A stretch of DNA of 64,000 bases, taken from a virus. Its lineage: Duplodnaviria; Caudoviricetes. Positions 13,538-49,223 of this stretch are shown piece after piece; position 1 is the stretch's first letter, and every line of letters begins with the position of its first letter. The translations under genes and the position numbers were made by a program. The notes beneath the pieces are model-generated. The model ran no database searches, was not told the DNA's origin, and was given only the letters and a program-made list of their open reading frames with translations. Location of the stretch: the IMG/VR virus record IMGVR_UViG_3300028844_006787. One strand, written 5' to 3'.

Positions 13538-14554
13538 CTATTTATTATTATTCTGCTCCCACTTCCATGCAGAGATAACCATTTCTTTTAATCCCAATTC
13601 ACATTTCCAATTCAATTCAGAATAAGCATAATCTGCATTTGCATATGCACTTGTAACGTCTCCACTACGTCTTTCACCAAACTTTACATTTAATATTACA
13701 TCGTTGTATTCTTCAAAAGCATTTAATACTTCTTTAACTGTGTATCCGTTGCCAGTTCCAAGATTAATTGGTTCTGATGTATAATCTTTTTTATTACTTG
13801 CTTTTAATGCACATACGTGTGCTTTTGCAAGATCCACAACATGAATATAATCACGAACGCAAGTTCCATCTTTTGTATCGTAATCTGTTCCGAATACAGT
13901 AAGTTGTTCTCGTTTTCCAATTGCAGTTTGAGTAATATAAGGAATCAAATTATCAGGTATTCCGTTTGGTAGTTCTCCGATTTCTGCTGAACTATGTGAT
14001 CCGATAGGATTAAAGTATCTTAATAATATACTACTAAAATTATATTCCGCATGAAAATCTTTTATCATTTGTTCGCATATCTGCTTGGTACGACCATATA
14101 CACTTTCCGCAGGTTTAATAGGTGTTTTCTCGGTAATAGGCAATTCATCTGCTTGACCATACACCGTGCAACTACTACTGAATATTAAATTACCGATATT
14201 GTATTTTTTCATTGCACGAAGCAAATTCAAAGTACCATTAACATTATTATCATAATACTTATCAGGTTTGCTCATGCTTTCACCAACACTTTTGCAGGCC
14301 GCAAAATGAATTACCGCAGTTGCTGATTCCTGATAATATCCAATTATCTCTTCAAGTGCATCGTAATTACGTATATCAATATTACAAAAATGAATGCCTT
14401 TTTTAGTAATTGCACGAATTCCATCAATTACACTTTCACTTGAATTAGATAAATTATCAATTACAACAACATCATAATCTTCATTTAATAATTCAACAAC
14501 TGTGTGACTTCCTATATAACCAAGTCCACCTGTTACAATAATTGTTTGCTTCAT
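13538..14554 (-). CDS. galE: UDP-glucose 4-epimerase
   Basis: TGGLGYIGSH, HFAACKSVGES, FSSSCTVYG, YGRTK, LRYFNPIG, DGTCVRDYIHVVDLA. Confidence 0.95.
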   Translation of the reverse strand: MKQTIIVTGGLGYIGSHTVVELLNEDYDVVVIDNLSNSSESVIDGIRAITKKGIHFCNIDIRNYDALEEIIGYYQESATAVIHFAACKSVGESMSKPDKYYDNNVNGTLNLLRAMKKYNIGNLIFSSSCTVYGQADELPITEKTPIKPAESVYGRTKQICEQMIKDFHAEYNFSSILLRYFNPIGSHSSAEIGELPNGIPDNLIPYITQTAIGKREQLTVFGTDYDTKDGTCVRDYIHVVDLAKAHVCALKASNKKDYTSEPINLGTGNGYTVKEVLNAFEEYNDVILNVKFGERRSGDVTSAYANADYAYSELNWKCELGLKEMVISAWKWEQNNNK

Positions 14555-15843
14555 TTAATCATTCCAGCCGCAACCGTTTCGTGCGTTTGTGGATCAATCA
14601 AAATAAAACTTCCATTTGCACGATTTTCTTCGTATGAATCTACACACATTGGTTTACTTGTTTTTAAACTTATTCTTGCAATATCGTTTAATCCAATACT
14701 CATATTTTGGTCTTCTGCTTTACTAAAAGTATTTACATCAAGTGTATAAATCTTTTTGGTAATCATAGCAGTTACTTCGTTACTATTGTGTTTTAATAAA
14801 TACTTTTTTCGTGGAAGCATTTTCTCTTCAGACATCCAACAAATCATTGCATCAGATGTTTGAGTAGTTTTTGGTAAATTATCAACACGAACAATTGTAT
14901 CACCTCGTCCTGCATCTATATCATCCTCAAGTTCAAGAACAACACTCGCAGGAGTGCAGGCTTCTTTTAACTCAGTTTTATATAAATGAATTTTCTTTAC
15001 ACGAGTTTCAAATCCACTTGGTTGAATACTAACTTTTTGACCTACCTCAAAACGACCACTTAATATTTTACCTGCATATCCACGAAAATCATGAAATTTA
15101 TCACTATGTGGACGAATTACTGTTTGAATATCAAATCGTGCATCTACTAAATTATTATCACTAAAAATTTCAATATTCTCAAGCATTTGAAGTAAATTAC
15201 CACCTTTATACCATTTCATTTTTTGTGACTTTGTAGTTACATTATCACCTTTTAATGCTGATATAGGAATAAAACGAATATCACTGCTTCGTAGTTTTAC
15301 ACTGAACTTCTTTAAATCTTCTTTAATTTTATTAAACTTTGCTTGATCATAATCTATTAAATCCATTTTATTTACCGCATAAATAACATGAGGTATTTTC
15401 AATAAACTTGCAATAAACGAATGTCGTCTAGTTTGTTCAGAAATTCCTTTACGAGCATCCACCAAAATAATAGCAACATTGCTTTTACTTGCTCCTGTTA
15501 CCATATTACGAGTATATTGAATATGTCCAGGTGTATCTGCTATAATAAATTTACGATTTGTGGTATTAAAATAACGATACGCAACATCAATTGTAATTCC
15601 TTGCTCTCGTTCACTTTTAAGACCATCTGTAAGATACGCAAGATTTACATCTTCTTCACCTTTCTTTTTACTTGTCGCACGAATTGCTTCATATTGATCT
15701 TTCATAACACTTTTTGTATCATAAAGCAAACGACCAATTAATGTACTTTTTCCATCATCAACACTTCCTGCAGTTGATAATCTTAATAGTTCGTTATTTT
15801 GAAGTTTATCAACATTCTTTTGAGTTTTTTTATCGTCTCCCAT
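14551..15843 (-). CDS. cysN: Sulfate adenylyltransferase subunit 1 (GTPase)
   Basis: TAGSVDDGKSTLIGRLL, EREQGITIDVAYRYF, ADTPGHIQYTRNMVTGAS, NKMD; no fused kinase domain. Confidence 0.97.
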   Translation of the reverse strand: MGDDKKTQKNVDKLQNNELLRLSTAGSVDDGKSTLIGRLLYDTKSVMKDQYEAIRATSKKKGEEDVNLAYLTDGLKSEREQGITIDVAYRYFNTTNRKFIIADTPGHIQYTRNMVTGASKSNVAIILVDARKGISEQTRRHSFIASLLKIPHVIYAVNKMDLIDYDQAKFNKIKEDLKKFSVKLRSSDIRFIPISALKGDNVTTKSQKMKWYKGGNLLQMLENIEIFSDNNLVDARFDIQTVIRPHSDKFHDFRGYAGKILSGRFEVGQKVSIQPSGFETRVKKIHLYKTELKEACTPASVVLELEDDIDAGRGDTIVRVDNLPKTTQTSDAMICWMSEEKMLPRKKYLLKHNSNEVTAMITKKIYTLDVNTFSKAEDQNMSIGLNDIARISLKTSKPMCVDSYEENRANGSFILIDPQTHETVAAGMIK

Positions 15844-15854
15844 CGTTTTTATCC

Positions 15855-16760
15855 TTAGAAATATCCTTGTTGTTTACGGTCTTCCATGCTTGTTTCTGAC
15901 TTTTTATCGTCACCACGTGTTCCTCTTTCGGTGGTTGTTGCACTTGCAACTTCTGCAATAATATCATCAATATTATCTGCGGTACTTTCACAAGCACCTG
16001 TGCAAGTAACATCACCAACTGAACGAAATCTAACTGTTTTTTCTACAACTTTCTCACCTTTTTTAAGTTGAACATAATCAGCATGAGCATACCAAATTCC
16101 ATCACGTTGATAACATTTTCTTTTATGAGAAAAATACAAGTTTGGTAAAGGAATATTTTCTTGCTTAATATAAGTCCATACATCAAGTTCAGTCCAATTA
16201 CTAATTGGAAAAATTCTAAAATGTTCATCTGCGGATTTTTTTCCGTTGTATAAATCCCAAATTTCCGGTCTTTGATTTTTTGGGTCCCATTGACCAAAGT
16301 CGTCACGATGCGAAAAGAAACGTTCTTTTGCTCTTGCTTTTTCTTCGTCTCGTCTTGCACCACCGATACAACCATCAAATTTGTGTTGCTCAATTGCATC
16401 AAGAAGCACAGGAATCTGAAGTTCATTCCGTGTAGCACCGATACCAGTTTCATCTTGAACTAATCCTTCTTTAATCGCATCTTCAACTTTGCGATCAAAT
16501 AACTTAAATTTGTATTTTTCCATGACTTCGTCACGGAATTTCATTACCTCGGGAAAATTGTGTCCTGTGTCTACATGAAGTGCCACAAACGGAGAATTTG
16601 CAGGATAAAATGCCTTCGCAATTAAATGAAGACAAACTAAACTATCTTTACCACCACTAAATAATAAAGCAGTATTTGGCATCTGTGCAAATGCTTCTCG
16701 CAATACATATATGCTTTCTGCTTCCAGTTGTTCTAAATGAGTTAAATTACATGATTCCAT
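15855..16760 (-). CDS. cysD: Sulfate adenylyltransferase subunit 2
   Basis: LEAESIYVLRE, FSGGKDS, HVDTG, GGARRDEEKARAKER, SMEDRKQQGYF. Confidence 0.97.
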   Translation of the reverse strand: MESCNLTHLEQLEAESIYVLREAFAQMPNTALLFSGGKDSLVCLHLIAKAFYPANSPFVALHVDTGHNFPEVMKFRDEVMEKYKFKLFDRKVEDAIKEGLVQDETGIGATRNELQIPVLLDAIEQHKFDGCIGGARRDEEKARAKERFFSHRDDFGQWDPKNQRPEIWDLYNGKKSADEHFRIFPISNWTELDVWTYIKQENIPLPNLYFSHKRKCYQRDGIWYAHADYVQLKKGEKVVEKTVRFRSVGDVTCTGACESTADNIDDIIAEVASATTTERGTRGDDKKSETSMEDRKQQGYF

Positions 16761-16789: not shown

Positions 16790-17359
16790 TTATACGGGTT
16801 GATTAAGTATAAAATTAAATAAAATGTTTGCAGAGTATTCAATGCTACGATTACTTGTTCGTATTATTAAATCAGGATCACTCGGAGTTTCAAACATACT
16901 CAATGATTTATTCATTGAATCTTTGTTATTTTGATATAATCCTTTTACGTCTCGTTTTATTACATCTTCTGCGGTTGCATGAATATAAATTAATTTAAAT
17001 CTATCACCAATTATATTTTTTGCATAATTCCGCATATTTTCAGTTGGAGATATAAAACTACCAATCACAGATGTTCCATTCTCAAGAAATAATTTAGCAA
17101 CTTCAGCACTTCTACGAATATTTTCTTTTCTACTTTCCACAGATAAATCTAAATCTGAATTTAATGTGCTTCGTATATTATCTCCGTCTATGCATTTTAC
17201 CGCAAAGTTTTCTTTGTATAATAAAGACTCGGTTGCTTTTGCTATTGTGGTTTTTCCACTTCCACTGTTACCAACCAACCAAAAAACATATGCTTTTCTT
17301 TTTCTAAGTTTTTCGTATTCAGTTTGACTTAGAAAATTTGTTGGAAAGATTTTATCCAT
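16790..17359 (-). CDS. cysC: Adenylyl-sulfate (APS) kinase
   Basis: P-loop GNSGSGKTT, DGDNIR, RKENIRR, SFISP, RDVKGLY. Confidence 0.93.
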   Translation of the reverse strand: MDKIFPTNFLSQTEYEKLRKRKAYVFWLVGNSGSGKTTIAKATESLLYKENFAVKCIDGDNIRSTLNSDLDLSVESRKENIRRSAEVAKLFLENGTSVIGSFISPTENMRNYAKNIIGDRFKLIYIHATAEDVIKRDVKGLYQNNKDSMNKSLSMFETPSDPDLIIRTSNRSIEYSANILFNFILNQPV

Positions 17360-17364: not shown

Positions 17365-17970
17365 TTATTTACCTTCCAATTTTTTAATTCGTTCTTCAAG
17401 TTCCTTGCAACGTTTCTTGATTGCATTTTGTTTTTTCTCTAGTTTTGTTTCAAGTTTTGATAATCTTTTTTCTTTGTTTAAACTTTGTTTATTAAGAGTA
17501 TCTACACTTTCTTTCATATCCGAAACTTTTACTGCACTTGCAATTTCACGTGCTTTTCTGAGTTCACCAATATCCTTTGACAGATGTGTTAATTTTAAAT
17601 CAATTTGATTTGTTACATCACTCTCTGAATCAATTGTGTTACTTAATCTTTCTCGTTGATGCGAAACTTTATCTTCCATTAAAGATAACATTTTATTCAT
17701 TTCCTTGAATCGTTTTTGCATTTGCTCATCTGCTTCACTATCAGTCTTTACATAGTTTTTAACATAATCACGTTGCCACTCTACTTGTTCTTTAACAAGT
17801 TTTACAACATTTTCAAGTTCAGCATATTTTAAATGCAATTCTACACTTACTTTATCTTCTTTTTTTAAGACTTTTTTGATATTATCTTTTTGCCATTGAA
17901 CTTGGTCATCAAGTAAATCAAGTGATTTTTCAAATGCACTTAATCTTTGGTTTACTTCTTTTTCATCCAT
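17365..17970 (-). CDS. Coiled-coil protein with ~39-aa internal repeats
   Basis: GGAGA SD; repeats around DQVQWQKD / EQVEWQRD / DKVSHQRE. Confidence 0.8.
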   Translation of the reverse strand: MDEKEVNQRLSAFEKSLDLLDDQVQWQKDNIKKVLKKEDKVSVELHLKYAELENVVKLVKEQVEWQRDYVKNYVKTDSEADEQMQKRFKEMNKMLSLMEDKVSHQRERLSNTIDSESDVTNQIDLKLTHLSKDIGELRKAREIASAVKVSDMKESVDTLNKQSLNKEKRLSKLETKLEKKQNAIKKRCKELEERIKKLEGK

Positions 17971-17996: not shown

Positions 17997-19319
17997 TTAT
18001 TTACTATTTTTCTCAAGTTCAAATTTTTTATCCCAATCAACCGTTCCATCTTCATTTATATAAGGTGGTTGTGGAACATCTACTTTATTCATGCTAAAAT
18101 ATGCAATCACTCCACCGATTAACGCAAGTGCAACAACACCCAAAACAATAAAAAGTGTATTCTTCTTCTTTTTAGGTTTTTCAACTACGGGTGGTTTTTC
18201 TTCCACAGGTTCTTCAACAGGTGGTTTTTCTTCCACAGGTTCTTCAACAGGTGGTTTCTCATCCACAGGTTCTTCAACAGGTGGTTTCTCGTCCACAGGT
18301 TCTTCAACAGGTGGTTCTTCTTTAACTGGTGTAGGAGTAGGAGTTGGTGTAGGAGTTGGTGTTGGTGTTGGAGTTGGAGTTGGCATAGGTAAATCTTTCA
18401 TTAGTTTCTCTATATCTACTACCCCGTATCCCCACGACCAATCTCTTCCAACTATTCCTTTATCGTGTGTGTATTTAAGAAGATGCTCACGAATTTGTGC
18501 GACTGTTTTACAATCATTCATACCCGTTGCTTTTTCTTGTTTACGATGCTTTGCAAGCATCAAACAAATAACACCTGTAATAAATGGACAAGCCATACTT
18601 GTTCCACTTAAACTAGCATATCCTTCGTTAAGATATGTACTATAAATATTTACTCCAGGTGCAGCCCACTCTACTCTTGGTCCTAATGAAGAGAATCTTG
18701 CTATTTTTCCGTTTTTATCATATGCAGCTATTGCAATAGTCTCAGAATAAGCAGCTGGATATCCAACTCCACCAAGTCCACTATTTCCAGCTGCACATAC
18801 TACAGGAATATTCATTTCGTATAATTTCTTGATACGGTCGTGCATTTGCTTATTTGCAGTTGGTCCACCTAAACTCATGCTTACAACATCAGGTTTCATT
18901 TCAATTGCATAATCAAGAGCATCGCATAATCCTGCGTAACTACCACTTCCATTTTTTGCAAGTGCTTTTACAGAAATGCATTTTGCTTCAGGTGCAACTC
19001 CAACCATTCCGATTCCGTTGTCTTTCGCACAAATAATTCCTGTGCAGTGAGAGTGATGCCCATTTTCATCTTCTATGGGTTCACCTTTTATGCAGTTTTT
19101 ACCAGGTATCGCATTATCACCAATATCTGGATGCACAGGGTGTCCTGTGTCAATTACCATTGCAGTTATTCCTTCACCTTTTGTGATGCTCCATGTTGCA
19201 GGAACATTTAACTGCTTTAATCCCCAATCAATTCTTTGACTCAATGAACTTAACTCTTCATTAATTTCATATTCTGGTAATGTTGTTTTTACTTTTTCAA
19301 ATCTGCGTCTTCTTTTCAT
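17997..19319 (-). CDS. Subtilisin-like S8 serine protease with Pro-rich stalk and C-terminal TM anchor
   Basis: Triad motifs VIDTG, ENGHHSHCTG, SGTSMACP; AAGN; PT repeat, (PPVEEPV[DE]EK)4, KKKK plus hydrophobic helix. Confidence 0.93.
   Translation of the reverse strand: MKRRRRFEKVKTTLPEYEINEELSSLSQRIDWGLKQLNVPATWSITKGEGITAMVIDTGHPVHPDIGDNAIPGKNCIKGEPIEDENGHHSHCTGIICAKDNGIGMVGVAPEAKCISVKALAKNGSGSYAGLCDALDYAIEMKPDVVSMSLGGPTANKQMHDRIKKLYEMNIPVVCAAGNSGLGGVGYPAAYSETIAIAAYDKNGKIARFSSLGPRVEWAAPGVNIYSTYLNEGYASLSGTSMACPFITGVICLMLAKHRKQEKATGMNDCKTVAQIREHLLKYTHDKGIVGRDWSWGYGVVDIEKLMKDLPMPTPTPTPTPTPTPTPTPTPVKEEPPVEEPVDEKPPVEEPVDEKPPVEEPVEEKPPVEEPVEEKPPVVEKPKKKKNTLFIVLGVVALALIGGVIAYFSMNKVDVPQPPYINEDGTVDWDKKFELEKNSK
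18190..18385. repeat. Coding tandem repeats: four 30-bp units plus a Pro-Thr 6-bp repeat
   Basis: ggtggttt(t/c)tc(t/a/g)tccacaggttcttcaaca x4 at 18190..18309, then the PT repeat; no spacers. Confidence 0.95.
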
Positions 19320-19335: not shown

Positions 19336-19367
19336 TAAAACGGGGAGGATTTCTCCTCCCCGTTTTA
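19336..19367 (-). terminator. Intrinsic, possibly bidirectional terminator after the tail fibre gene
   Basis: TAAAACGGGGAGGA-GAAA-TCCTCCCCGTTTTA, 14-bp stem, GNRA loop. Confidence 0.85.
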
Positions 19368-19381: not shown

Positions 19382-22300
19382 TTAACTATTGTCTTCTTCC
19401 AAGCTATTAAGTCGGATTGTAAGACTTTCAAGTGTCTTTAGAATTTTTTCTTGACTATTTTTGATGTCTGCAATGTCGTTGTGAATTGCTTTTTTCTTCA
19501 TGTCTTCTTCAATTTTCTTGAATCTTACATCACGATCAAACTCAGAGTCTTTGACTCGTTTGTTCATTTTACCATCCACATCGTTCATGCGTTTTTTCAT
19601 TGCATCTTGTTTCTTTTCAAGTTTTCTTTCAATATCACCGAAACGTTTTTTGCGTAATTTATCAACTTTATCAAGTTTCTCAATCTTCGCATCAAGTTGC
19701 TGAATAGATTTAATCATCGGAGAAATAAACTCTTCGTAACGAAGACTCATGTGAAGTTCACCTTTACCTTCATCTTCATTATCCAAAGCATGATTTGGAT
19801 CAACGAATCCACCGAAGTCTTTTCCACCAAGAACTTCTTGAACATCCTGTGCAATCAATCCGTAGTGAGTTCTTCCATGACTATTTTCAACAATCTTACC
19901 TTTTACTTCTTCTTGATTATCATCTGTATCAAGTCCGTTTGTATTTGCACGTTCTTCAACTAAAACCTTATCAGATTTATATTTGTAACTTACAGGTTTG
20001 AGTTTCTTAATGAAATCGAGACCGAGATCACTTTTCTCAATTTTAGTTTTCGCACGTCTATCAGAATAAACATCAGGAGCATTACGACACCACAATGTAT
20101 CAAAACGGTGTGCCCCGATTGGTGCTCCCAAGTCCATAACACCACTCATTGGAATCAATGCACCACCAATAAGTTTCATACTAACTGCGGAACGTGAATT
20201 TCCTTGGAAGTGTTTTTCACGATAACGATTATATGCATTTGTGTGAGTCGTACTACCATATGTATTATCACCTCTCCATGCAGCGTATTTCTTTGTGGTG
20301 TTTCTGAACCAATTTGAACTTCCTTTTTCTTCACTTACTACATGGGAAATAACAGGAACTCCGTGTGCCCTGAATATAATACTTCCGTGATTACCAGTTT
20401 TAGCATTTTGATCTACACCTTTGCGAATATTATTTGCTTCAAGAACCAAATCACCATGATTTGCAAGAAGATGCAAAGAGTTTGGTGATGAATCGGTATT
20501 CTCACGGTGAGTTCTAATTGTAGAGTGCAATCCAACGGTAGAACCTTGTTCAGTATCAATCATCAAACGATTATCAAACAAATACTTTTTCCAAGATGCA
20601 TTTCCACCTTTATGATAATGTGTATTAAAACGAACAGTACCAAGACCATCCATAATATGCTCACAATACATTTTGTTATCAGAACGATGTACATAAACTC
20701 CGTTTCCACCCCAAGTTTTTACACCCATTCCATCAATTGTTGTACTTGTCCAATTTGATGTTCCTTTGAATGTTGTGGTTGTACCACTGAAACTTACTGC
20801 ATTCAATGAAAACTTATTAACTTCAAGTGCATCTACTACAAGAGTTGCAGCCCCATTGCTTGTGTTTGTGAAGTGGTGTTTACCATTTACCGAACGATAA
20901 TGCATTTGCCCACTTGATGCCGAATAAATATCTGCACCACGTGAGAACTCAAGGTGATGAGATTCACCACTTACTCCATTATCAAGTTCAACGGGTCCAG
21001 CCATATCAAGTTTCTTGGTTTGCAACTTAGCAAAATTGAAATCTTGAAGTTCAGCAATATTAGGCATAGGACCTGCAGGACCTGCAGGACCACGATCACC
21101 TTTAGCACCGGCTGCACCAACCGAACCTGCTTGTCCACCCATTCCACCGAGTAGTTGACTTAATGTTGGAGAATCACTACATACTTCATAGAAACCAGGA
21201 AGTGTCCAATCAAGAGAAGCAGCTGGATTTGTTGAATAATACAAATAAGTTCTATGACGTTGAATACCAGTTGTACCCATTTTATAGTCTGTGTAATTTC
21301 TGATTTTCTTTCCTGTATCTATTCTATATAATCCACCACCATATGAATTTTTGTCAGGATCGTTATTCGCATGAATATATCCCACCGACAAACACCATAC
21401 ATTTTCTGGTAAGTTATTAATTGTAAAATAACTGAAATATGGATTTGTATTGTGACTATTATTACTCAAATTAAGAGTATCTGCACGACTTCCGTTGTTA
21501 CTACAACCATGATAAAAATAACCACCTGTTGCTTTTCCCACACGTTTAACATACACAACCGACATATAAGCTGCGTTCTTTTTAAGACCTGTAATGTCTT
21601 TATTCCAACCACCATCTGCATTAGATAATTTGTCGTTGTTTCGTGCTTTCCAAACTTTTGTTCTGCGACCAAATGGACCGATTTCCCATGCAATTGAGTT
21701 TTCTGCGGAAGTTCCATTTACATTAAATACTCCACCTGTGTCTTCATCAAGATACGAACCTTTTCCAGTTGCAACTTCCCATTTACGATTAGACGCAAAA
21801 TTTACATAAGATGAAGTACCAGGATCACCTTTGTCACCTTTGTCACCTTTAGCACCTTTAGCACCATCTTTTCCGGTTTGTCCGTCTCGTCCAGGAGAAC
21901 CAGCAGGTCCTTTAGGTCCGGCAGGTCCAGGAGCACCTTGTGATCCTTGAGGTCCTGCTAAACCACTTGCACCTCTTGGTCCTTGTGGTCCAACTAATCC
22001 TCCACCACCAACTCCGTTGTATGCAAAGAATACTTCTCCGTCTGTAAGTGGTGTGTCGTAAAAGCGAATATCATCAATCATACCATCAAGAGTATAACGA
22101 CCACCTTTACGAATACTACCAATTTCAATTGGATAAGTTGTATCATTAAACAAGTGCTTTGCAGTTTTATTGCTTGCACCTGAATATATTGCCAAATCAT
22201 TCAGTTCTACTTCTTTACCATTCTTGTATACGGTAAGAATTCCATTTTTAAGGCTATAAGTCATGTGTGTCCAGTTTCTTAACTCTGGATAATTTGCAGT

Positions 22301-35714: not shown

Positions 35715-35721
35715 TGTTTTT

Positions 35722-35750
35722 ATTTTAGTTTTTGATTGTTGGTGTGTCAA
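35722..35750 (-). promoter_or_regulatory. Sigma70-like promoter of metK
   Basis: TTGACA-17 nt-TAAAAT; ATG follows after 7 nt. Confidence 0.7.
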
Positions 35751-35771: not shown

Positions 35772-36428
35772 TTAAAAAGAATAATTAAAATACTCAAGAT
35801 CTTGTTTGCACATTTCTTCTACAAAGTTTCGTGTGTTGAATGATTTATATGCAGTTTTATAGTTACAATTTACTTCAGAACCATTTATAATTTCATTTAT
35901 TTGTAGATTCTTTAAATTTATTTTTTTTCTAACTTTTTTAAAATCATTTTGTAAATTCTCAAACTTTCCTACAAAATCAATATCAATAATAGTTTCATCT
36001 AAACTAATATAATTTAGCATATTAATTTCGTATCCTGTGTAAAAAGTATAACATTTATTTCTCATGTAGTGTGCATATATAGATTCAATCCACTCATCAA
36101 ACGACAAATCCTGCAATAAATCTAGATTTTCTTGCATCTTCATATAATTGAATAAAGAAAATAATCTATCAAATGGATTTCTTACAAAAGTAAACTTAAA
36201 AAAGTTATCATAAAACACTTTATTAAAATTTTCTTTATAGTAACCAAGTTGACGATGTTTATCTTCTCCTATATTTACATGACCATCATCTTTTAGTTCA
36301 GTTTTAAGTAAATGACCATGTGAATCTGCAAAATAAAATGAATCACTTTGCATAAGATTTCTTTCTATGAAAGTACCCGCACACTTTGGTATATGAACGA
36401 ATATAGTATTCAGTTCAGGAACAATCAT
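35772..36428 (-). CDS. PAPS-dependent sulfotransferase (Sulfotransfer_2-like)
   Basis: FVHIPKCAGTF, FVRNPFDRLFS, DFVGKFENL. Confidence 0.9.
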   Translation of the reverse strand: MIVPELNTIFVHIPKCAGTFIERNLMQSDSFYFADSHGHLLKTELKDDGHVNIGEDKHRQLGYYKENFNKVFYDNFFKFTFVRNPFDRLFSLFNYMKMQENLDLLQDLSFDEWIESIYAHYMRNKCYTFYTGYEINMLNYISLDETIIDIDFVGKFENLQNDFKKVRKKINLKNLQINEIINGSEVNCNYKTAYKSFNTRNFVEEMCKQDLEYFNYSF

Positions 36429-41463: not shown

Positions 41464-42292
41464 AATAATTAAAATTAAGGTCAGAAATTGGATCTTGGTT
41501 GTATGAAATATTACTCTTTTTAGAGAAAATTCTACCCTTGGGTACTATAACATTTCCTTTATGGAATAAAATTGGTAAACCACTGAAACAACCTTTGCTT
41601 GCAATTAAAATATCAGAATTGAATATATGCCAAAGACTAAAATACGGGCACCCATCTATTATTAGTTGAATGTCTAGATCATTAATATTTTTAAATTTGC
41701 TAAATATGTCACAATTTTTAAAAATATTTGGAAATCTTTTAATTGCTCTGTCCGTTAAGTTTTCTGAAAAAATATAAAACCTAATATTTTTGTTTGTTTG
41801 TTTTAGTTTGTACATGGTGTCTATAAAATACTCATCTGAATGAAATTTCCAACCAAAGTCTTTTTGAGCCTCTAGTATATCACCACGTCGTACATGAACT
41901 GCTACATTTACATAATTTTTGTCAAAGATAAGTTTTGGTTTTTTTGTTTTTTCTATTTTACTCCAAAATCTGTCAGTAAACTCATCAAAGTAATTTAAAT
42001 TTTTACTTATATCCTTGAATGTAATCCGTGATTTAAATTCAGGTACAAAACAATAATTTATTTTCTCACCATTAAGTTCGTATTCTTTTAATTCACCTTC
42101 ACCAAAATTAAAAAAATTTTCAGCATCCATCGGATTACAATCGTGTGCAATTTCTTTAAAAGGAACATAAACAAAATTATATCCATTTAAATTACAATAT
42201 ACCCATAGCATTATCTGCCTATAAAGTTGAGAAGTCATTCCATCGTAATGTGGTTCATCAATTGCTAAATAAAGTTTATCCATTATATCCAC
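41438..42292 (-). CDS. GT11-like fucosyltransferase-fold protein
   Basis: DGMTSQ, AVHVRRGD, YIFSE, SDILIASKGCFS. Confidence 0.75.
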   Translation of the reverse strand: MDIMDKLYLAIDEPHYDGMTSQLYRQIMLWVYCNLNGYNFVYVPFKEIAHDCNPMDAENFFNFGEGELKEYELNGEKINYCFVPEFKSRITFKDISKNLNYFDEFTDRFWSKIEKTKKPKLIFDKNYVNVAVHVRRGDILEAQKDFGWKFHSDEYFIDTMYKLKQTNKNIRFYIFSENLTDRAIKRFPNIFKNCDIFSKFKNINDLDIQLIIDGCPYFSLWHIFNSDILIASKGCFSGLPILFHKGNVIVPKGRIFSKKSNISYNQDPISDLNFNYYENEIYKI

Positions 42293-43023
42293 TCTTCAAT
42301 TTCGTACCCAAGATATTCAAACAGTTTTTCATTTTTTGGACGATAAAAATCCATACAAAATTCTTTATCACATTTATCTAATGAATCTATATACTTTGTT
42401 TTGTTAATTTTCTTATTTTCTATGGTATGTTCAGCAACTTCTAAGAATTTAAAAATTTTTTTAAATTCTTCAGTTGGGTTTGAAATTAATTTTTCTTGAA
42501 CCACGACACATATATTATCCTTTGAAAATATTTTTTCGTAACTTTTTATCACATCAATATAAATTGTTTCGGTAAACGATCTTGCATTTTTAAAATTATA
42601 TATAAAACTCTTTGAAACATCAAAGTGTATCCAGTCTTTGGGATAAAGTTCTTTGCAAAAATTATACCATGAAAAAATTCTATCCACAGGATTTCTTACT
42701 AAAAAAATAATTTTTACACCATTTCCTAAAATTCTACCTATGGTTGTTGAAATCATGTGGTGTTGTACTGCATAATTTGGTGAAAATTCTCCATGCACAT
42801 TGCCGTCATTTAAAAAATGACTTTTATACCAATCAACACCCAAATGAATCTTTGAAGAGTGCTGATTTGCTGGTCTAAAAAAATCAAACTCGTATCTTTT
42901 GTTTATTTTATTTTTAGGTATAGTAATACTTGGGTGTTGATTTAAATTTTCAGAAAAAGCAGTTGTTCCACATTTTGTAAAACCAACCCCTATAAAATCA
43001 GGATATTTATAGTCATCTTTCAT
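42283..43023 (-). CDS. PAPS-dependent sulfotransferase (Sulfotransfer_1, heparan-sulfate ST-like)
   Basis: PDFIGVGFTKCGTTA..LNQHP, GEFSPNY, LVRNPVDRIFS. Confidence 0.9.
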   Translation of the reverse strand: MKDDYKYPDFIGVGFTKCGTTAFSENLNQHPSITIPKNKINKRYEFDFFRPANQHSSKIHLGVDWYKSHFLNDGNVHGEFSPNYAVQHHMISTTIGRILGNGVKIIFLVRNPVDRIFSWYNFCKELYPKDWIHFDVSKSFIYNFKNARSFTETIYIDVIKSYEKIFSKDNICVVVQEKLISNPTEEFKKIFKFLEVAEHTIENKKINKTKYIDSLDKCDKEFCMDFYRPKNEKLFEYLGYEIEEWI

Positions 43024-43035: not shown

Positions 43036-43692
43036 TTACTTATCTTTTGAACGATTACGATGATTACCGTGTAGACCAAAAAACTCACTCTGAACTTTGC
43101 CGAAATCATTTTGTTTTATTTTTTCATAGTTCATATCCATCAAATTTATACGTGCAACTGAGTTATCAATTTGTAAATCGGAAATCACGATTTCAAATTT
43201 TTTTTCAATTTTTTGTGCAATCTCCAATATAACATCTTTTTTGTTTTTTTGAATATTTGGGTTATATGAGGACTTATATAATAAGTCCTCATATTCCATG
43301 ACAAGTATATCATCATGTTCAAAGCAAAAATTTGGAACTAGTTTATTTTTATCTCTACGTATTACTGATATTTTACGCACTCCCTCTATATTAAAAATGT
43401 GCGTTTTATTTTTATCACTTGCATGAGTTTTTATTACTTTTAAATCCTTATCTAATTTATATTCACTGATGTGGGATTTTTTGTTGTTATCAAGTCCCTT
43501 AAAGACTACACTTGCAGTTGGATCAAAAAAACCTAATAGAACATTTACGAGTAATGTGCTTCCGGTTTGGGTGGGAGTTACCACCATCCAAGGTTTTTTG
43601 TTTTTATCTTGTTCTCTTTTAATTTCACCAAGAAAAGGACTAGTGTCAGAAAGTAAAGGTATCTTTGTTGATTTTTTTTCATTTATTTTCAT
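43036..43692 (-). CDS. Divergent sulfotransferase-like protein
   Basis: TPTQTGSTLL (PSB-like), VIKTH, MEYEDL. Confidence 0.5.
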   Translation of the reverse strand: MKINEKKSTKIPLLSDTSPFLGEIKREQDKNKKPWMVVTPTQTGSTLLVNVLLGFFDPTASVVFKGLDNNKKSHISEYKLDKDLKVIKTHASDKNKTHIFNIEGVRKISVIRRDKNKLVPNFCFEHDDILVMEYEDLLYKSSYNPNIQKNKKDVILEIAQKIEKKFEIVISDLQIDNSVARINLMDMNYEKIKQNDFGKVQSEFFGLHGNHRNRSKDK

Positions 43693-43704: not shown

Positions 43705-44844
43705 TTAGATTTCGTTTTGCGTTAATTCTGATTTAAAAATGTTAGACAACGTAGTCGTTTCTGTATTCCCAAGGATATAATCTAAGTAATCAAGTTCTAT
43801 TTGTCTTGTAAATGATTCCATACAAAAAACAAATTTAGATTTAGTATTTTTATTACTCAATCTATCAAATAGTTTCTTTGTTCTGTTTTGGTGAGGTAAT
43901 CCATACGACTTATTTATTCCATTTGCCGAAACTTGCGATGTGTCTTTAGTAGATCTGACGAGTCTTTTGAAAATATCCACACATGGAATGTATTCTAGTT
44001 TTGCTACTCTATTGATCAATTCATTATATCCATGTTTAAAATCATTTCTTCTTTGAAAAATTGTTACATTTACCTCGTTTTTACCTAATAATTGCAGTCC
44101 ATGTACCGCAGAACCTTCCACAAAAACTAATTCCTTTGCAGTTGAATAAATTTCAAGTTGCTCTTTTATTGTAAGTTTTTCAGGATATACTATTGTATAC
44201 CCAAGTTCATTAAATGCACTCTCTATGTATTTTTCACCAAGTAACCCACCCTGCTTACCACGTATAGGTGAAGCAAAATTTGTTCTTGATATAAAATAAT
44301 TACCAACTCTTTTTTGCTTTGCATTTGTCTTATAAAAATTCAATAAATTTATATAATCAGGTGATGTGGGATATGAACTATATAAGTGTTCTGCCTGTGG
44401 ACATACATAAAGATTTTTAAACAAAACTGGTTTTTTATTTACTATATAAACATTAGTTTGGTTATATCCATAAAGTTCTAATATTTCTTTTATATATCTT
44501 GGAATTTTGTCCCAAGTTTGAGATGAGTCACCGGTTAAACACAATTTATAGTTTTTATTTCGTTTTATATGACTTACATATTGTACGCACCTACTGAGAT
44601 ACTCTACTATAAAATGACCAAAGTGTTCTTTTATATGACCTCCGTAATAAACTACCGTATCACTCACGTCTACATCATCTAAATTTGGTATTTCCGTTGG
44701 ATAAGTATCCCAATTTGCGTCAGTTCTCAAATGCCTTACATCTGTATTTGAGTTCCAGTCGGGATAAATCGGTCCTCCCACGGGTTTTGTCCATTTGTAT
44801 TTATGCTCCCACGGTAAAACAATTATATCCTTAAAATGTTTCAT
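43705..44844 (-). CDS. GT61 (DUF563)-like glycosyltransferase
   Basis: HFGHFIVE, YFISR, YPEKLTIKEQL, EGSAVH. Confidence 0.82.
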   Translation of the reverse strand: MKHFKDIIVLPWEHKYKWTKPVGGPIYPDWNSNTDVRHLRTDANWDTYPTEIPNLDDVDVSDTVVYYGGHIKEHFGHFIVEYLSRCVQYVSHIKRNKNYKLCLTGDSSQTWDKIPRYIKEILELYGYNQTNVYIVNKKPVLFKNLYVCPQAEHLYSSYPTSPDYINLLNFYKTNAKQKRVGNYFISRTNFASPIRGKQGGLLGEKYIESAFNELGYTIVYPEKLTIKEQLEIYSTAKELVFVEGSAVHGLQLLGKNEVNVTIFQRRNDFKHGYNELINRVAKLEYIPCVDIFKRLVRSTKDTSQVSANGINKSYGLPHQNRTKKLFDRLSNKNTKSKFVFCMESFTRQIELDYLDYILGNTETTTLSNIFKSELTQNEI

Positions 44845-45482
44845 GTTGTTCTTTCAATAAGTTTCTCTAGTATATTGTTTGCATCGTTTCTTATTTGATT
44901 ATATATATTAACATAAAATTCATTATAGTTTTCATTTTTTTCATCTATTACACTATTTCTTGGTTTTATTTTTATTTTTTGTAATAATGAAACATCAACT
45001 CTAAGTAAGTGAGATAATTGTTTTGTATATTTAGAAATATCACCTATTTCAATTGGTATAAAATTTGGACAATTTTTCCACGACTCGTAATGACTTTTTA
45101 ACATAAATAAATCTCGGTTTTCTGATGTTACAATTTTCATGTATTCCTCAAGTGTATTTGGCATATACTGTTTTACACCTGTCATTCTTAAACATTGTAG
45201 ATTTTGCCAACGTCTGCGAAAGTGACTTTGAATCATTAAAACCGGATGTGTATAAACATAAAAATTGAAACTTGATTTCATTTTTTCGTAATCAATACTC
45301 GCATATCTATTTTTTTGTTTTTTGAGAATGCCAAAGTGACCGTGTTTCAAACCATCAAATCCACTTATATCATTTGTTTTAAATTTCAATACATTTTCAA
45401 AAAACCTAATTAAATAAGTTTGACCAGACCCACCCCACCCTACAATATTTACATTGTTATATTCTATTTGAGGACTGATCAC
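44841..45482 (-). CDS. Divergent sulfotransferase-like protein
   Basis: IVGWGGSGQTYL (PSB-like), LKH, YVYTHP...SHFRR, HYESW. Confidence 0.45.
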   Translation of the reverse strand: MISPQIEYNNVNIVGWGGSGQTYLIRFFENVLKFKTNDISGFDGLKHGHFGILKKQKNRYASIDYEKMKSSFNFYVYTHPVLMIQSHFRRRWQNLQCLRMTGVKQYMPNTLEEYMKIVTSENRDLFMLKSHYESWKNCPNFIPIEIGDISKYTKQLSHLLRVDVSLLQKIKIKPRNSVIDEKNENYNEFYVNIYNQIRNDANNILEKLIERTT

Positions 45483-45561: not shown

Positions 45562-46668
45562 TCATGTGCTTCCGCATTCCTTGGTAAAATTTATTTTTTC
45601 TGCCTCGTTTTTAATGTATTTATCATATTCCACCAAAACCATTTGGTCATATTCTATTTTAGATATTTCTATATTAGGTATGGTTTTATCCGTCTTTCGT
45701 ACAATATTCATTATTTCTATGAGTAATCCTATGCCATACAAAACAAGGCCGTGAGATTCCTTTAAAAAATTTCTCTGCGTTTTTTTATCAACTGCACGTC
45801 CAGGTATTAGTGTAGGGAGTTCTGAAATATACTTTAATGAATTACAACGTGGTAATATAACATTACGTACCCATCCACCATTTGCATATATATTTCGTCT
45901 TTTTATTATAAGAATATCTCCCATCGCACGACCTAATAATTGAAATGTATGGTAAGCAGAACCCTCAACCATTATTATCAATCGTGATGAATTATATAAT
46001 TTCACTTGTTCTTCTACTGACATTTGCTCTGGATAAATTACCTCAATTCCACATTCTCTAAAGTATTTTTCAAGATACTCTTCACCTGCAAGTTTAGGGT
46101 AACTCCTGTGGGTTAGTTTTGACCTTGAAACATAAACTATTCCTTTTTTTTCAGAGATTGGTTTGGGTGGGTAATTTTTATCAAGCAAATCTAAATAAAA
46201 TTCCGATGTTAGATTTTTCTGCTGTATTGTTTCATTTTGAGGTGTTACATACAATGTTTTTGCAATGGTGGGTTTATCAATAAAAAAAACATCTTCATTG
46301 GAATAACCAAAGTGTCTTATTATTTCCCAAAAAAAGTCACTTACGTTTATTTTTTCATGTATAGAAAAACATAACTTTCCTTTAATGTTTGCTTCTTTGT
46401 ACACCAATATTCGTGACATATGTTCACATATTAGATGACCATAGTGGTAGTGGTAGCTACCACACCAAAGTAATGGGAAATCAATTGTTTGTTTATTACA
46501 TAAACTATCTACTCTTAAACTACTTATTTCAGAACATATAACTTCTTTACCACGTTTTTGCATTAAGTGTTTAGATTTTTCAAAATTTGGGAAAATAGGT
46601 CCATAAAAGTCGTCGCATTTACTTAAATTGAGTATCTCAATATCATTGAATTTTTCTATCTCGTTCAT
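45562..46668 (-). CDS. GT61 (DUF563)-like glycosyltransferase, paralog of 43705..44844
   Basis: HYGHLICE, VYVSR, LAGEEYLE, YPEQMSVEEQV, EGSAYH. Confidence 0.82.
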   Translation of the reverse strand: MNEIEKFNDIEILNLSKCDDFYGPIFPNFEKSKHLMQKRGKEVICSEISSLRVDSLCNKQTIDFPLLWCGSYHYHYGHLICEHMSRILVYKEANIKGKLCFSIHEKINVSDFFWEIIRHFGYSNEDVFFIDKPTIAKTLYVTPQNETIQQKNLTSEFYLDLLDKNYPPKPISEKKGIVYVSRSKLTHRSYPKLAGEEYLEKYFRECGIEVIYPEQMSVEEQVKLYNSSRLIIMVEGSAYHTFQLLGRAMGDILIIKRRNIYANGGWVRNVILPRCNSLKYISELPTLIPGRAVDKKTQRNFLKESHGLVLYGIGLLIEIMNIVRKTDKTIPNIEISKIEYDQMVLVEYDKYIKNEAEKINFTKECGST

Positions 46669-46680: not shown

Positions 46681-47346
46681 TCATTCTCCAAATTTATATT
46701 TAAAAGTTTCTATATACCGACCTGCCTTTTTCTGCACCAAATCTCGAGACTCTTTGGTATAAAAATATTCATAAGTTTTATTGCTTAGATCTGAGCGTAT
46801 ATTTGATTTTAATCTAGGGAGCATGATGCTCTTTATTCCTACCTGTTCACAAAACTGCATATAAGATTGTTGTAAGTTTTCATATTTGATATAATAATCC
46901 ATTAAGAGATTGCCATTAGAATCAATACTTCTGCTGATATTCTGTTTCAAACCTTTCAACCATTTCTTATGTTTAATCCAATCGTTGAAATAAATCTTAT
47001 AATTTACATTTTCCAAGTTTTTCTTTTCACGCAGAAACCAAAAACAAGACGATACTACCATGTCCCACGGATTTCTTATTATCGTTACTTTAGTATACTC
47101 ATTCCACATAGTGTCTCCAATTTTTCTTCGGATTTTTTCGGGTGTTGATTCTTTCTTTAAGCCAATTAAATTTCTAGATGAGGTCCAGTCAGCATCTGAC
47201 CAAACGTCCTCTGGTGGGTTTCCCTTTGCGGGCAAAAATACCGAATCACCTTCACCACAATACCTTCCCAATGCAAGCAATACACTTGATCCCGCAACTT
47301 TGTGACCCTTTAAATAAATAAATTTATACTTGTGTGATATAATCAT
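46681..47346 (-). CDS. PAPS-dependent sulfotransferase (Sulfotransfer_2-like)
   Basis: MIISHKYKFIYLKGHKVAGSS, IRNPWDMVVS, IKYENL. Confidence 0.88.
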   Translation of the reverse strand: MIISHKYKFIYLKGHKVAGSSVLLALGRYCGEGDSVFLPAKGNPPEDVWSDADWTSSRNLIGLKKESTPEKIRRKIGDTMWNEYTKVTIIRNPWDMVVSSCFWFLREKKNLENVNYKIYFNDWIKHKKWLKGLKQNISRSIDSNGNLLMDYYIKYENLQQSYMQFCEQVGIKSIMLPRLKSNIRSDLSNKTYEYFYTKESRDLVQKKAGRYIETFKYKFGE

Positions 47347-47349: not shown

Positions 47350-47913
47350 TCATTCTCCAAATTCATAACCGAAATACTCAATGTCCTTTGCGTATTTTTC
47401 CGTAACGATTTCACGAGTTTCATCATCGTAGTATTCGGTGTAGTGTTTATGTTCGGTTTTGTTTTTGTGTGGAAGTTTTTGTTTTGGAATTCCAATTTTG
47501 TCGCAGATTAAATCAAAGTCTTCTTGGAGATTTTCAAATCTTCCGATGAAATCTATACGGTCTTTCACCCAATTTACTTGATGACTCCAATGTCGTGATT
47601 TAAGTTCTTCATAGATATTTGGAAAATTTAAAGTAAACTCTAGGAATGAGTTATATTGATTCACAATTTTTCCATCGTGTAAGTCACGTCCCTTCATCTG
47701 ACCATATGCCTTAAAATAGAAGTATTTCGAGACAAATCGATCCCACGGATTTCTAAAAAATCCAAATCTAAAAAATTCACGATTAGCATTAGAATTAAAA
47801 TTGTGTGGACCTGCGAGTGTTCTTCCGTATTTATGAAAGTGTTCAGCTAAAGAAGAACCTCCTGTTTTTGGAATATGAAAAAAAATAAATTTATGGTTGT
47901 TTGAAACAATCAT
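47350..47913 (-). CDS. PAPS-dependent sulfotransferase (Sulfotransfer_2-like)
   Basis: FFHIPKTGGSS, FFRNPWDRFVS, DFIGRFENL. Confidence 0.92.
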   Translation of the reverse strand: MIVSNNHKFIFFHIPKTGGSSLAEHFHKYGRTLAGPHNFNSNANREFFRFGFFRNPWDRFVSKYFYFKAYGQMKGRDLHDGKIVNQYNSFLEFTLNFPNIYEELKSRHWSHQVNWVKDRIDFIGRFENLQEDFDLICDKIGIPKQKLPHKNKTEHKHYTEYYDDETREIVTEKYAKDIEYFGYEFGE

Positions 47914-47928: not shown

Positions 47929-47973
47929 TCATTCTCCAAATTTATATCCAAAATACTCAATATCTTTTGCGTA
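47929..47973 (-). pseudogene. Orphan 3' end of a sulfotransferase gene (YAKDIEYFGYKFGE*)
   Basis: Matches the C-termini of 47350..47913 and 48600..49223; overlaps the end of the methyltransferase gene in another frame. Confidence 0.85.
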
Positions 47974-48589
47974 TTACTAATATGTTCTCATAAAATTCAA
48001 TTTTTGAAAAACGAGAACTTCCAAAATTTCTTTTCTGAGTTTTGCCCCAAATTACAACCTCATCTATTAAATGTTTTGCAAACGGTAAAATCGCATGAGG
48101 TTTGTTAGAGGTTTTACCATCCACAAAAATACCGTTATTTTGAGTGTATGATGCAAAATCTTCTATAACATAAAATCCATTTGGTTCTAAATAATCAAAT
48201 AGAGTAAAAAAAGTTTTTTTTGTTAAATCGTGATCGTGGGAAGCATCATCTATGATGATATCAAACTTACCATATTTTTCTGCCAATTTAGATAGTTTAG
48301 CAGAGTTACCTTGATTACATCTTTCATATACAACATTATCAGGAAAATTGCACATTTTTTCTTTTATGTCTACACCAAGCACTATCTCGGAAAATGGTGC
48401 AAACAATTTCAGTGAATCACCTCGGTGTACTCCAAGTTCGCATACTCTTGGTGGTGACTCAAAGTTTTCCCAAATATTGTCGTATATTTCTAAATAATGA
48501 TCCCACTTACGAGCAAGACCACAATCTGGTCCGAAAACTCTATCTAGTTCGTTTATTTTCTGATTGCTTTCTAAGTAATTTGTTTTCAT
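47957..48589 (-). CDS. Class I SAM-dependent methyltransferase (sugar O-methyltransferase-like)
   Basis: KWDHYLEIY, ELGVHRGDSL, GVDI, DIIIDDASH, GFYVIED. Confidence 0.88.
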   Translation of the reverse strand: MKTNYLESNQKINELDRVFGPDCGLARKWDHYLEIYDNIWENFESPPRVCELGVHRGDSLKLFAPFSEIVLGVDIKEKMCNFPDNVVYERCNQGNSAKLSKLAEKYGKFDIIIDDASHDHDLTKKTFFTLFDYLEPNGFYVIEDFASYTQNNGIFVDGKTSNKPHAILPFAKHLIDEVVIWGKTQKRNFGSSRFSKIEFYENILVIRKRY

Positions 48590-48599
48590 AATTAATTAT

Positions 48600-49223
48600 T
48601 TATTCTCCGAATTTGTAACCGAAATGCTCAATGTCTTTTGCGTATTTTTTCGCAACTGCATCACGAGTTTCATCGTCATAATATTCGGTGTAGTGTTTGT
48701 GATTAGAAGGATTTATGTGCGGTAAGGTTCTTGTTTCGATGCCTAGATTTTTACATAATTGATCAAAATCATTTTGTAAGTTTTCAAATCTTAAAACGAA
48801 GTCCATAGGATTCTTATTTTCATACTCAATCCAATCATAACATGGTTGTTTCCATTTCTCATTACTATGCAAATTACCAAAAACTTCATCTCGGATGGAA
48901 TGCTCCCTTGATACAAATTTTTTCTTCTTACAAAATGAAACATCCGAAACTATTCTATCCCAAGGATTTCTCACAATTGTAAACTTGTAATAATCTTCCC
49001 AATAGTTTTTTACCTCGTTTAATGGAATCCAATTGAATTCATTTTGTTTTTTTGTTTTTAACCAATCTTGCCACCAACGATTTTGATCATCTTTAAGAAT
49101 ATCGTCAGAAAAAACCATTTTAGAAGTTACATGAGTTTGTAAAATACCAAGGGCATCACCTACACTCGTACCCGCAGTTTTGTTAATATGAACAAATATA
49201 CACCTATGTTTATGATGTATCAT
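48600..49223 (-). CDS. PAPS-dependent sulfotransferase (Sulfotransfer_2-like)
   Basis: FVHINKTAGTS, IVRNPWDRIVS, LRFENL. Confidence 0.92.
   Translation of the reverse strand: MIHHKHRCIFVHINKTAGTSVGDALGILQTHVTSKMVFSDDILKDDQNRWWQDWLKTKKQNEFNWIPLNEVKNYWEDYYKFTIVRNPWDRIVSDVSFCKKKKFVSREHSIRDEVFGNLHSNEKWKQPCYDWIEYENKNPMDFVLRFENLQNDFDQLCKNLGIETRTLPHINPSNHKHYTEYYDDETRDAVAKKYAKDIEHFGYKFGE

Follow-up and report, generated by a model that had tools for sequence, protein, structure and literature searches.

A tailed-phage PAPS operon linked to sulfotransferase and glycosyltransferase genes: a predicted pathway for sulfating a phage-built glycan

We analysed a 64,000-nucleotide stretch of viral DNA (Duplodnaviria; Caudoviricetes; IMG/VR virus record IMGVR_UViG_3300028844_006787), hereafter the window, which carries a cysC-cysD-cysN operon for the synthesis of 3'-phosphoadenosine 5'-phosphosulfate (PAPS) together with six to eight sulfotransferase genes set among glycosyltransferase genes. 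On this gene content, PAPS is likely to be made for the sulfation of a glycan. The fuller explanation, in which the phage itself builds the glycan and a virion protein is the preferred acceptor, is also probable and is held slightly less firmly. An earlier note on this DNA had proposed that the phage sulfates a glycan assembled by its own glycosyltransferases and does not make PAPS for cysteine synthesis. This proposal gained support from the coupling of sulfotransferase and glycosyltransferase genes, the conservation of cysCDN with sugar genes, the sulfotransferases of related phages and the genes flanking cysC in IMG/VR.

CysD and CysN convert sulfate and ATP to adenosine 5'-phosphosulfate (APS) in a reaction driven by GTP hydrolysis, CysC phosphorylates APS to PAPS, and the Sulfotransfer_1 and Sulfotransfer_2 families use PAPS as the donor. 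In the proposed mechanism, the genes for an S8 protease, a coiled-coil protein, CysC, CysD, CysN and GalE would form one transcription unit, and CysDN and CysC would produce PAPS in the infected cytoplasm. Six to eight soluble phage sulfotransferases (approximately 190 to 250 aa) would consume this PAPS, working with coupled soluble phage glycosyltransferases of the GT2, GT7C-like, GT11-like, NodZ-like and GT61 types. The nucleotide sugars would also be phage-made, namely a dTDP-6-deoxyhexose (RmlA/RmlB and an RmlD-like protein), a CMP-nonulosonate (NeuB and a cytidylyltransferase) and UDP-Gal(NAc) (GalE), and methyl groups may be contributed by MetK and a methyltransferase-like protein. The pathway would not serve cysteine synthesis; a multiply sulfated heteroglycan is its predicted product.

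The PAPS operon and the sulfotransferases

The gene layout was determined using Pfam, NCBIfam and PHROG scans of the window's open reading frames (ORFs). The Pfam scans covered most coding-strand ORFs of at least 80 aa; approximately 10 short ones (80 to 127 aa, too small for these enzymes) fell outside them. All features below lie on the minus strand unless stated otherwise. The operon encodes an APS kinase (cysC, 16790..17359; TIGR00455, 150.7 bits against a cut-off of 138.7), the ATP sulfurylase small subunit (cysD, 15855..16760; NF003587, 432 bits against 195), the ATP sulfurylase GTPase subunit (cysN, 14551..15843; TIGR02034, 540 bits against 336), which has 430 aa and no kinase fusion, and a UDP-hexose 4-epimerase (galE, 13538..14554; TIGR01179, 405 bits against 262). 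CysD scored slightly under two equivalog models (NF009214, 399 against 413; TIGR02039, 389.5 against 396.6). The catalytic motifs are kept in all three sulfate-activating enzymes: the CysD PP-loop S35-G-G-K-D-S40 (SGGKDS), which is invariant across 19 sequences, the GTPase motifs of CysN (G1 GSVDDGKST, G3 DTPGH and G4 NKMD), and the P-loop GNSGSGKT, DGDN, FISP and RDVKGLY of CysC. With the three genes above NCBIfam cut-offs and their motifs present, the profile check agreed with the earlier description of cysC, cysD and cysN as intact, and every gene that the earlier note names proved to be an uninterrupted minus-strand ORF at the position given.

The genes are tightly packed, with 11 bases between cysD and cysN and a 4-base overlap between cysN and galE. 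A terminator-like hairpin of 13 pairs followed by a T-run (13471..13501) lies 37 nt past galE and closes the unit, and a second terminator-like hairpin (19345..19361) lies between the genes for the tail fibre (19382..25219) and the protease, so that the unit from protease to galE appears bounded at both ends. The cysN-galE overlap, the single closing terminator and the position directly downstream of the tail fibre, with protease and coiled-coil genes next, were all as the earlier note had them. The GC content of the cys block (0.322) is close to that of the window (0.316); the nearest bacterial operon has 0.367.

The unit begins with an S8 subtilase (17997..19319; Pfam Peptidase_S8, 1.7e-43; phrog_3677) that has a C-terminal membrane anchor, with a transmembrane (TM)-like segment at residue 386. 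No signal peptide is present. Past the catalytic domain, the chain runs through a (PT)12 linker, which is a possible site of glycosylation, some five Pro-rich acidic repeats (EEPV..KPPV) and a stretch of lysines to a single TM helix, and it ends in a tail of 40 aa. Homologues of this protease adjoin sulfation genes in five other phage contigs, designated here L004/L040, L041, L006, L059 and L061. The second gene encodes a coiled-coil protein of 201 aa (17365..17970) with no Pfam family, whose C-terminus resembles residues 1826-1887 of the fibre.

The 5'-phosphosulfate-binding (5'-PSB) lysine and the 3'-phosphate-binding (3'-PB) Arg-x7-Ser were found in all six confirmed sulfotransferases. Matches to Sulfotransfer_2 were obtained for the genes at 31212..31868 (50.7 bits), 35772..36428 (67.1 bits; between a LOG-like gene and metK), 47350..47913 (69.2 bits; 187 aa) and 48600..49223 (58.4 bits), and a match to Sulfotransfer_1 for the gene at 42283..43023 (72.3 bits). 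The gene at 46681..47346 scored 21.2 bits for Sulfotransfer_2, 0.8 under the cut-off of 22, and was assigned as a paralogue by BLAST (E 1e-18 to 1e-25). The six genes for which the earlier note had reported both PAPS-binding motifs were therefore confirmed, five above the Pfam cut-off and 46681 by paralogy. The five Sulfotransfer_2 paralogues are 22-34% identical among themselves, which suggests that several distinct sites may be sulfated. The family of 47350 (approximately 190 aa) comprises 3432 clusters, largely marine, with many members on contigs of 100-500 kb, and JGI annotation calls close homologues 'chondroitin 4-sulfotransferase 11', a carbohydrate sulfotransferase.

The earlier note had also listed two divergent candidates, which fared differently. 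The protein encoded at 44841..45482 gave no Pfam match of its own, while among PDB entries the best matches to the profile of its family were exclusively cytosolic sulfotransferases (7v1o, E 2.6e-4); the family has 82 representatives, and 5 of 45 members match Pfam Sulfotransfer_1. For the protein at 43036..43692, a possible sulfotransferase fold is suggested by a language-model lead from ESM-Atlas (score 0.94, TM 0.54 to Sulfotransfer_1/3 clusters), and a word-index search for homologues returned a near-identical copy only. An hhalign comparison of both proteins with the sulfotransferase-paralogue profile was negative, and the AlphaFold single-sequence models were of low quality (pLDDT 46 for 43036 and 33 for 44841). 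On profiles and motifs, the count is six sure sulfotransferases, one profile-supported and one weak candidate.

Pfam scans of the window ORFs revealed no cysH, cysIJ or cysK, as the earlier note had stated; the sole PAPS_reduct match was CysD itself. These three functions were likewise absent within 10 kb of the operon in L004/L040, L041 and L006.

The glycan island and its relatives

The glycosyltransferase genes begin with four at 26931..31222 (GT2/GT7C-like 26931, GT2 27659, GT7C-like 29502 and NodZ-like 30296) and continue with a two-domain DUF6734 and GT2 protein (38270..39931), a GT11-like protein of the fucosyltransferase family (41438..42292) and a GT2-like protein (49220..50434), all recognized with Pfam, and with two paralogous GT61 proteins (43705..44844 and 45562..46668) recognized with Pfam and BLAST. 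Within the same string lie metK, encoding S-adenosylmethionine synthetase (34554..35750; Pfam), a gene for a methyltransferase-like protein inside the sulfotransferase array (47957..48589; sub-threshold Pfam matches) and a deoxynucleoside monophosphate (dNMP) kinase gene. A nucleotide-sugar block (53625..63606; Pfam and NCBIfam) contains rmlB (53625), a cytidylyltransferase gene (55306), a NeuB-family synthase gene (55950) and an RmlD-like gene (56804), followed by a Nucleotid_trans gene (58555), a short-chain dehydrogenase/reductase (SDR) epimerase gene (61074), rmlA (62038) and a GT2-like gene (62938; sub-threshold Pfam).

From 50434 down to 40642 the glycosyltransferase and sulfotransferase genes form an almost gap-free string. 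Start-stop overlaps of 4-11 bases join genes of the two kinds at 31212/30296 (11 bases), 42283/41438 (10 bases), 44841/43705 (4 bases) and 49220/48600 (4 bases). By this arrangement, the sulfotransferases appear to be translationally coupled to glycosyltransferases inside an island of approximately 37 kb of soluble glycan enzymes. A crude hydropathy scan of 26.9-63.6 kb gave a single borderline TM-like segment, in 43036, and Pfam scans and hydropathy found no priming phosphoglycosyltransferase, flippase, polymerase, ligase or ABC exporter family in the 64 kb. Since TM proteins and families for priming, flipping, polymerization and export were absent, the whole glycan factory is predicted to be soluble and cytoplasmic.

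Three further observations were made in the island. An intact alanine dehydrogenase gene (32376-33467; AlaDh_PNT, E 9e-79) lies in its middle. A recent segmental duplication covers 58555-62018: over 73 aa, genes 58555 and 59997 share 96% identity; identity between 59298 and 60327 (TviD_N-like by precomputed Pfam) is 72%; and the last part of 59997 repeats the C-terminal end of epimerase 61074 with 86% identity. A LOG/SLOG-like gene (36434-37198) adjoins a sulfotransferase gene and metK.

Relatives of the operon were traced through CysD. Approximately 24 metagenomic relatives are 73-89% identical; beyond them identity is at most 67%, and the named matches at that level are all Bacteroidota, whose CysD is 65-67% identical. 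A maximum-likelihood tree groups 19 full-length sequences in a single clade (support 100/99), which a long stem separates from the neighbouring Bacteroidota CysD; this fits one origin and long retention thereafter. Among bacteria, the nearest operon, found in a Chitinophagales metagenome-assembled genome (JAWKKY010000002.1), has the same cysC-cysD-cysN order and spacing, with CysD 65% and CysN 61% identical. The bacterial copy lies among housekeeping genes with no sulfotransferase nearby, whereas the phage copies form their separate long-stem clade at low phage GC. A LOG/SLOG-like gene follows the bacterial operon as well (10282-10863 of the extracted locus, L062) and is 30% identical to that of the window; the LOG-like gene and the cys operon may have been acquired together.

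The gene neighbourhood is kept in the related contigs. The 190-kb contig L004/L040 has the resolvase, the S8 protease, cysC-cysD-cysN, two GDP_Man_Dehyd/Epimerase-family genes, galE and a MYG1-like gene; upstream are LOG, sulfotransferase and MetK genes in the window's order, several glycosyltransferase genes and a second sulfotransferase gene, the two sulfotransferases lying within 18 kb in L040. The two GDP_Man_Dehyd/Epimerase-family genes of the relatives are read as gmd and fcl, of the GDP-fucose type. The 40-kb contig L041 carries three collagen genes, the S8 protease, cysC-cysD-cysN, gmd-like and fcl-like genes and galE, and continues in one direction with GT31, GT7C, laminin-G, GT2 and NodZ/FUT8-like genes. 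A 351-kb long-read contig has the same core, with frameshifts. In a further IMG/VR contig, UViG_3300009508_002179, whose resolvase is 68% identical to that of the window, TerL and tape-measure genes are present; an APS-kinase-like gene adjoins a homologue of the S8 protease, and Sulfotransfer_2 domains number at least eight. A search for the Gp23 family in it was uninformative, since neither the target nor the controls gave a match. One 400-aa frame of this contig (G001:C1:38112-39296) holds two Sulfotransfer_2 domains, a tandem fusion. Since relatives keep cysCDN with sugar genes, glycosyltransferases and sulfotransferases, the block co-varies with genes of these three kinds. The earlier note had held that its proposal would be undermined if reductive cys genes lay elsewhere and cysCDN did not co-vary with sulfotransferases across related phages; sulfotransferases accompany the block in L004/L040 and an APS-kinase-like gene in UViG_3300009508_002179.

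Among 50,697 INPHARED records there was no convincing phage with cysD; the records that matched resemble contigs of bacterial origin or short pieces from the gut. The 462-kb phage LR756500.1 carries cysC and a sulfotransferase gene 21 kb apart. A single-protein scan of IMG/VR with CysD gave no match, and an alignment scan of the same database found four distant cysD-cysN loci only. A survey of cysC in IMG/VR gave 25 loci, of which 18 were non-redundant, and 133 flanking ORFs were taken. These included five Sulfotransfer_2, two Sulfotransfer_1 and two Sulfotransfer_3 matches and four epimerase/dehydratase matches; cysH was absent among the 25 families listed. The commonest family beside viral cysC was CTP_transf_like (PF01467; 6 of the 133 ORFs), ahead of Sulfotransfer_2. 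For the co-occurrence survey that the earlier note had suggested, sulfotransferases recur near IMG/VR cysC, while the four cysD-cysN loci have neither cysC nor a sulfotransferase-like match to window proteins nearby. Two contigs with sulfotransferases of the 47350 family carry tandem arrays of three to five sulfotransferase genes among GT8, GT90, GT92/34, GT47 and pyruvyl-transferase genes. In L061 (ERZ840881 NODE_23, 209,452 bp), an inorganic pyrophosphatase gene (9505-10014) sits inside a five-gene sulfotransferase array, and its product could help drive ATP sulfurylase in the forward direction. This locus also has a PSCyt2/PSD1 and DUF1501 pair.

Phage setting of the window

The source is most probably a tailed phage of coastal seawater with a genome of about 205-209 kb, of which the window would form the right-hand approximately 64 kb, and the host is probably a member of Bacteroidota. 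The minus strand carries every sizeable ORF, at 27-39% GC and with hardly any space between neighbours; the genes number approximately 66, in a window of 31.6% GC. In the direction of transcription, the nucleotide-sugar block (63.6-53.6 kb) is followed by the dense glycosyltransferase/sulfotransferase string (50.4-26.9 kb), a phage resolvase, the tail fibre, the unit from S8 protease to galE, small membrane proteins and finally giant repeat proteins. The fibre, directly upstream of the operon, has 1945 aa with Pfam Collagen, Laminin_G_3 and Peptidase_S74 (endosialidase chaperone) domains and matches many PHROG tail-fibre families (best E 1e-42). As signs of a tailed phage, the window offers only this S74-chaperone fibre, the resolvase (phrog_244) and the dNMP kinase (phrog_139), the latter two of phage families; no capsid or terminase gene was noticed within the 64 kb.

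The identical CysD sequence occurs in five contigs. The 205-kb JGI and 155-kb ENA assemblies share its flanking genes, and a Logan fragment and a second JGI fragment show genes adjacent to it. The two contigs with gene layout shown, those of 205 kb and 155 kb, end at the same place, approximately 395 bp upstream of gene 62938-63606. This end (window 63616-64000) may mark either the physical terminus of the genome or the edge of a repeat.

A T4 late-promoter motif, TATAAATA, was considered and set aside, with only 3 of 20 matches on the coding strand. The other 17 are on the plus strand (for example at 7597, 25695, 32342, 34387, 37202, 39938, 45486, 52198, 54639 and 62899) and read TATTTATA on the coding strand, many of them 4-40 bases upstream of gene starts. 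TATTTATA is a candidate phage promoter or leader motif; none lies ahead of the PAPS operon.

Competing explanations and significance

Rhizobial nodPQ/nodH serve the sulfation of Nod factor and include a dedicated second set that comprises ATP sulfurylase and APS kinase. As in that system, the PAPS set of the phage is linked to carbohydrate sulfotransferases and not to reductive genes; nodPQ/nodH differ in that NodQ is a CysN-CysC fusion and in having one sulfotransferase, one lipo-oligosaccharide acceptor and a plasmid-borne, cellular location. The closest described system is the sulfated capsular-polysaccharide cluster of Cobetia marina KMM 1449 (PMC11766843), which also brings together PAPS genes (cysD, cysN and cysC functions), sulfotransferases, glycosyltransferases and a dTDP-rhamnose-type pathway in one locus. 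The Cobetia cluster additionally has a cysN/cysC fusion, cysQ, a sulfate permease, the kpsETMD ABC exporter, kpsSC lipid priming and a wcb operon, none of which is present in the phage island. The phage, in contrast, has separate cysN and cysC and far more sulfotransferase paralogues, on a phage genome. Of the features that would mark a capsule locus of the Cobetia type, namely a Kps ABC or Wzx/Wzy exporter, lipid-carrier priming, cysQ and a sulfate permease, none was found, and there is no multi-TM protein in 26.9-63.6 kb. By gene content, the system would be classed as a cellular-type sulfated-glycan pathway that was moved into a phage and stripped of export functions.

Chloroviruses and mimivirus make virion glycans. 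We know of no report of sulfation for the glycans of mycobacteriophages, chloroviruses or mimivirus. The likeness to virion-glycosylating viruses lies in soluble, virus-encoded glycosyltransferases and sugar-nucleotide pathways, which in those viruses decorate structural proteins in the cytoplasm without cellular export; their targets are structural proteins, whereas in the present system such a target is a prediction. For mycobacteriophages, glycans on capsid and tail-tube proteins are described (Freeman et al. 2023, as cited in PMC12619734). The 'moraphage' paper (PMC12619734) makes no mention of sulfotransferases or cys genes, one paper calls the function of phage sulfotransferases unclear, and phrase and term searches of the literature found no description of a phage PAPS-plus-sulfotransferase system.

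A virion protein is preferred as the acceptor because the island is without a membrane-embedded component for assembly or export and because the PAPS operon lies behind fibre genes, both in L041 and in the window. Decoration may fall on fibres, giant repeat proteins or PT-rich linkers, and this part of the explanation is tentative, somewhat short of an even call. A more specific and improbable extension is that a sulfated coat rich in deoxyhexose or fucose and containing nonulosonate, on fibres or giant repeat proteins, mimics fucoidan or ulvan, so that SusC/SusD-type receptors of Bacteroidota capture the virion by this glycan 'bait'.

Several points weigh against glycan sulfation on a virion protein as the purpose of the pathway. 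The window has no sulfate transporter and no CysQ-type phosphatase for 3'-phosphoadenosine 5'-phosphate (PAP), which is a product inhibitor of sulfotransferases. The earlier note's description of the system as self-sufficient accordingly holds for donor synthesis and fails for PAP removal, sulfate uptake and export, given the absence of the corresponding genes from the window. A MYG1/DHH-type phosphoesterase (12060..12941; Pfam MYG1_exonuc, a PDB MYG1 match, H..D and DHHQ motifs), whose gene is also kept after the PAPS operon in L004 (58% identity), is a speculative candidate for a PAP-removing enzyme in a window without CysQ. The protein 44841 lacks two PAPS-contact residues, with Gly for the 5'-PSB Lys and Thr for the 3'-PB Arg (the Ser is kept). 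The assignment of 43036 as a sulfotransferase is unproven, with no support from Pfam, PDB-sequence or hhalign comparisons and with Gln for the 5'-PSB Lys. Phage PAPS could also feed host CysH, a role compatible with glycan sulfation. Finally, glycosyltransferases that are soluble are also usual where O-antigen or capsule is assembled in lipid-linked form with host priming and export.

This last point leads to a serious rival, in which the sulfated glycan is built on a host lipid carrier and exported by host machinery. The remodelled lipopolysaccharide (LPS) or capsule would hide receptors and shut out competitor phages. An island without TM proteins is compatible with such envelope remodelling, since the glycosyltransferases of O-antigen and capsule synthesis are commonly soluble or peripheral; LPS-type gene clusters occur in T4-like cyanophages, and temperate phages can bring about seroconversion of the host. 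The closest cellular analogue, the Cobetia cluster, is itself a capsule locus (PMC11766843). We nevertheless judge this unlikely overall, given the lack of priming, flipping, polymerizing, ligating and exporting functions in the 64 kb, the place of the PAPS operon after fibre genes in the window and L041, the S8 homologue beside the sulfation genes in every related contig examined, and the scant time in which a lytic phage could gain from a surface change. A cellular or chimeric contig, on which the system would be an ordinary bacterial sulfated-polysaccharide locus, could account for the missing capsid and terminase and for the 65-67% identity to Bacteroidota CysD. It is the least credible of the explanations, in view of the identical CysD in five contigs, the agreement of the JGI and ENA assemblies on flanks and end, the approximately 66 genes on one strand at 31.6% GC, the phage families of fibre, resolvase and dNMP kinase, and the TerL and tape measure of the related IMG/VR contig.

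In the published reading, viral cysC, cysD and cysN (with cysH) are auxiliary metabolic genes of assimilatory sulfate reduction that feed cysteine synthesis (Kieft et al., 10.1101/2021.01.05.425418; Chen and Banfield, PMC10914622), and cysC is concentrated in aquatic phages with larger genomes (10.1101/2021.01.05.425418; PMC10914622). The main texts of both papers contain no word starting 'sulfotransfer'. Applied here, CysDN and CysC would boost host sulfate reduction, and thereby cysteine and methionine for virions, and the sulfotransferases would be unrelated passengers. A metK gene within the island and the absence of CysQ from the window fit this explanation. The enzyme families are the same as in the published cases, whereas here the full activation trio is linked to sugar genes and a sulfotransferase array with no cysH, cysIJ or cysK in the window; the operon ends in galE, and in relatives it runs into gmd-like, fcl-like and fucosyltransferase-like genes. 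Sulfotransferases co-occur in those relatives and recur at the cysC flanks in IMG/VR, where cysH is absent among the listed families. A cysteine role as the main purpose is therefore improbable; a boost to host cysteine is possible as a side effect and would leave the gene linkage unexplained. Less probable still are non-glycan acceptors such as small metabolites, lipids, protein tyrosines, hypermodified DNA bases or DNA-linked sugars. The nucleotide-related genes of the island (dNMP kinase, LOG/SLOG-like and MetK) and QueF in L040 point in this direction, and viral glycosyltransferases are capable of hypermodifying DNA (Pyle et al. 2024, as cited in PMC12619734). Against it stand the overlaps of sulfotransferase genes with fucosyl-, galactosyl- and GT61-type glycosyltransferase genes, the presence of three nucleotide-sugar pathways and the chondroitin-type JGI annotation of close homologues.

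Sulfation of a phage-built glycan, as the preferred explanation, has consequences for how viral sulfur genes are read. Viral cysC, cysD and cysN are now counted as sulfur-assimilation genes, and if they mainly feed sulfotransferases, biogeochemical interpretations would need revision. The approximately 190-aa soluble carbohydrate-type sulfotransferases and the compact PAPS pathway are candidate tools for enzymatic glycan sulfation. The pathway predicts phage-made sulfated glycoconjugates, a chemistry that, as far as our literature search shows, is unreported for any virus-encoded pathway. If the glycan-bait idea were true, this would be the first virus-made sulfated glycoconjugate, and much of the aquatic viral 'sulfate assimilation' signal would be glycan sulfation. 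Sulfation of glycans by phages would be relevant to adsorption, to the stability of virions and to the marine pool of sulfated glycans that resist degradation.

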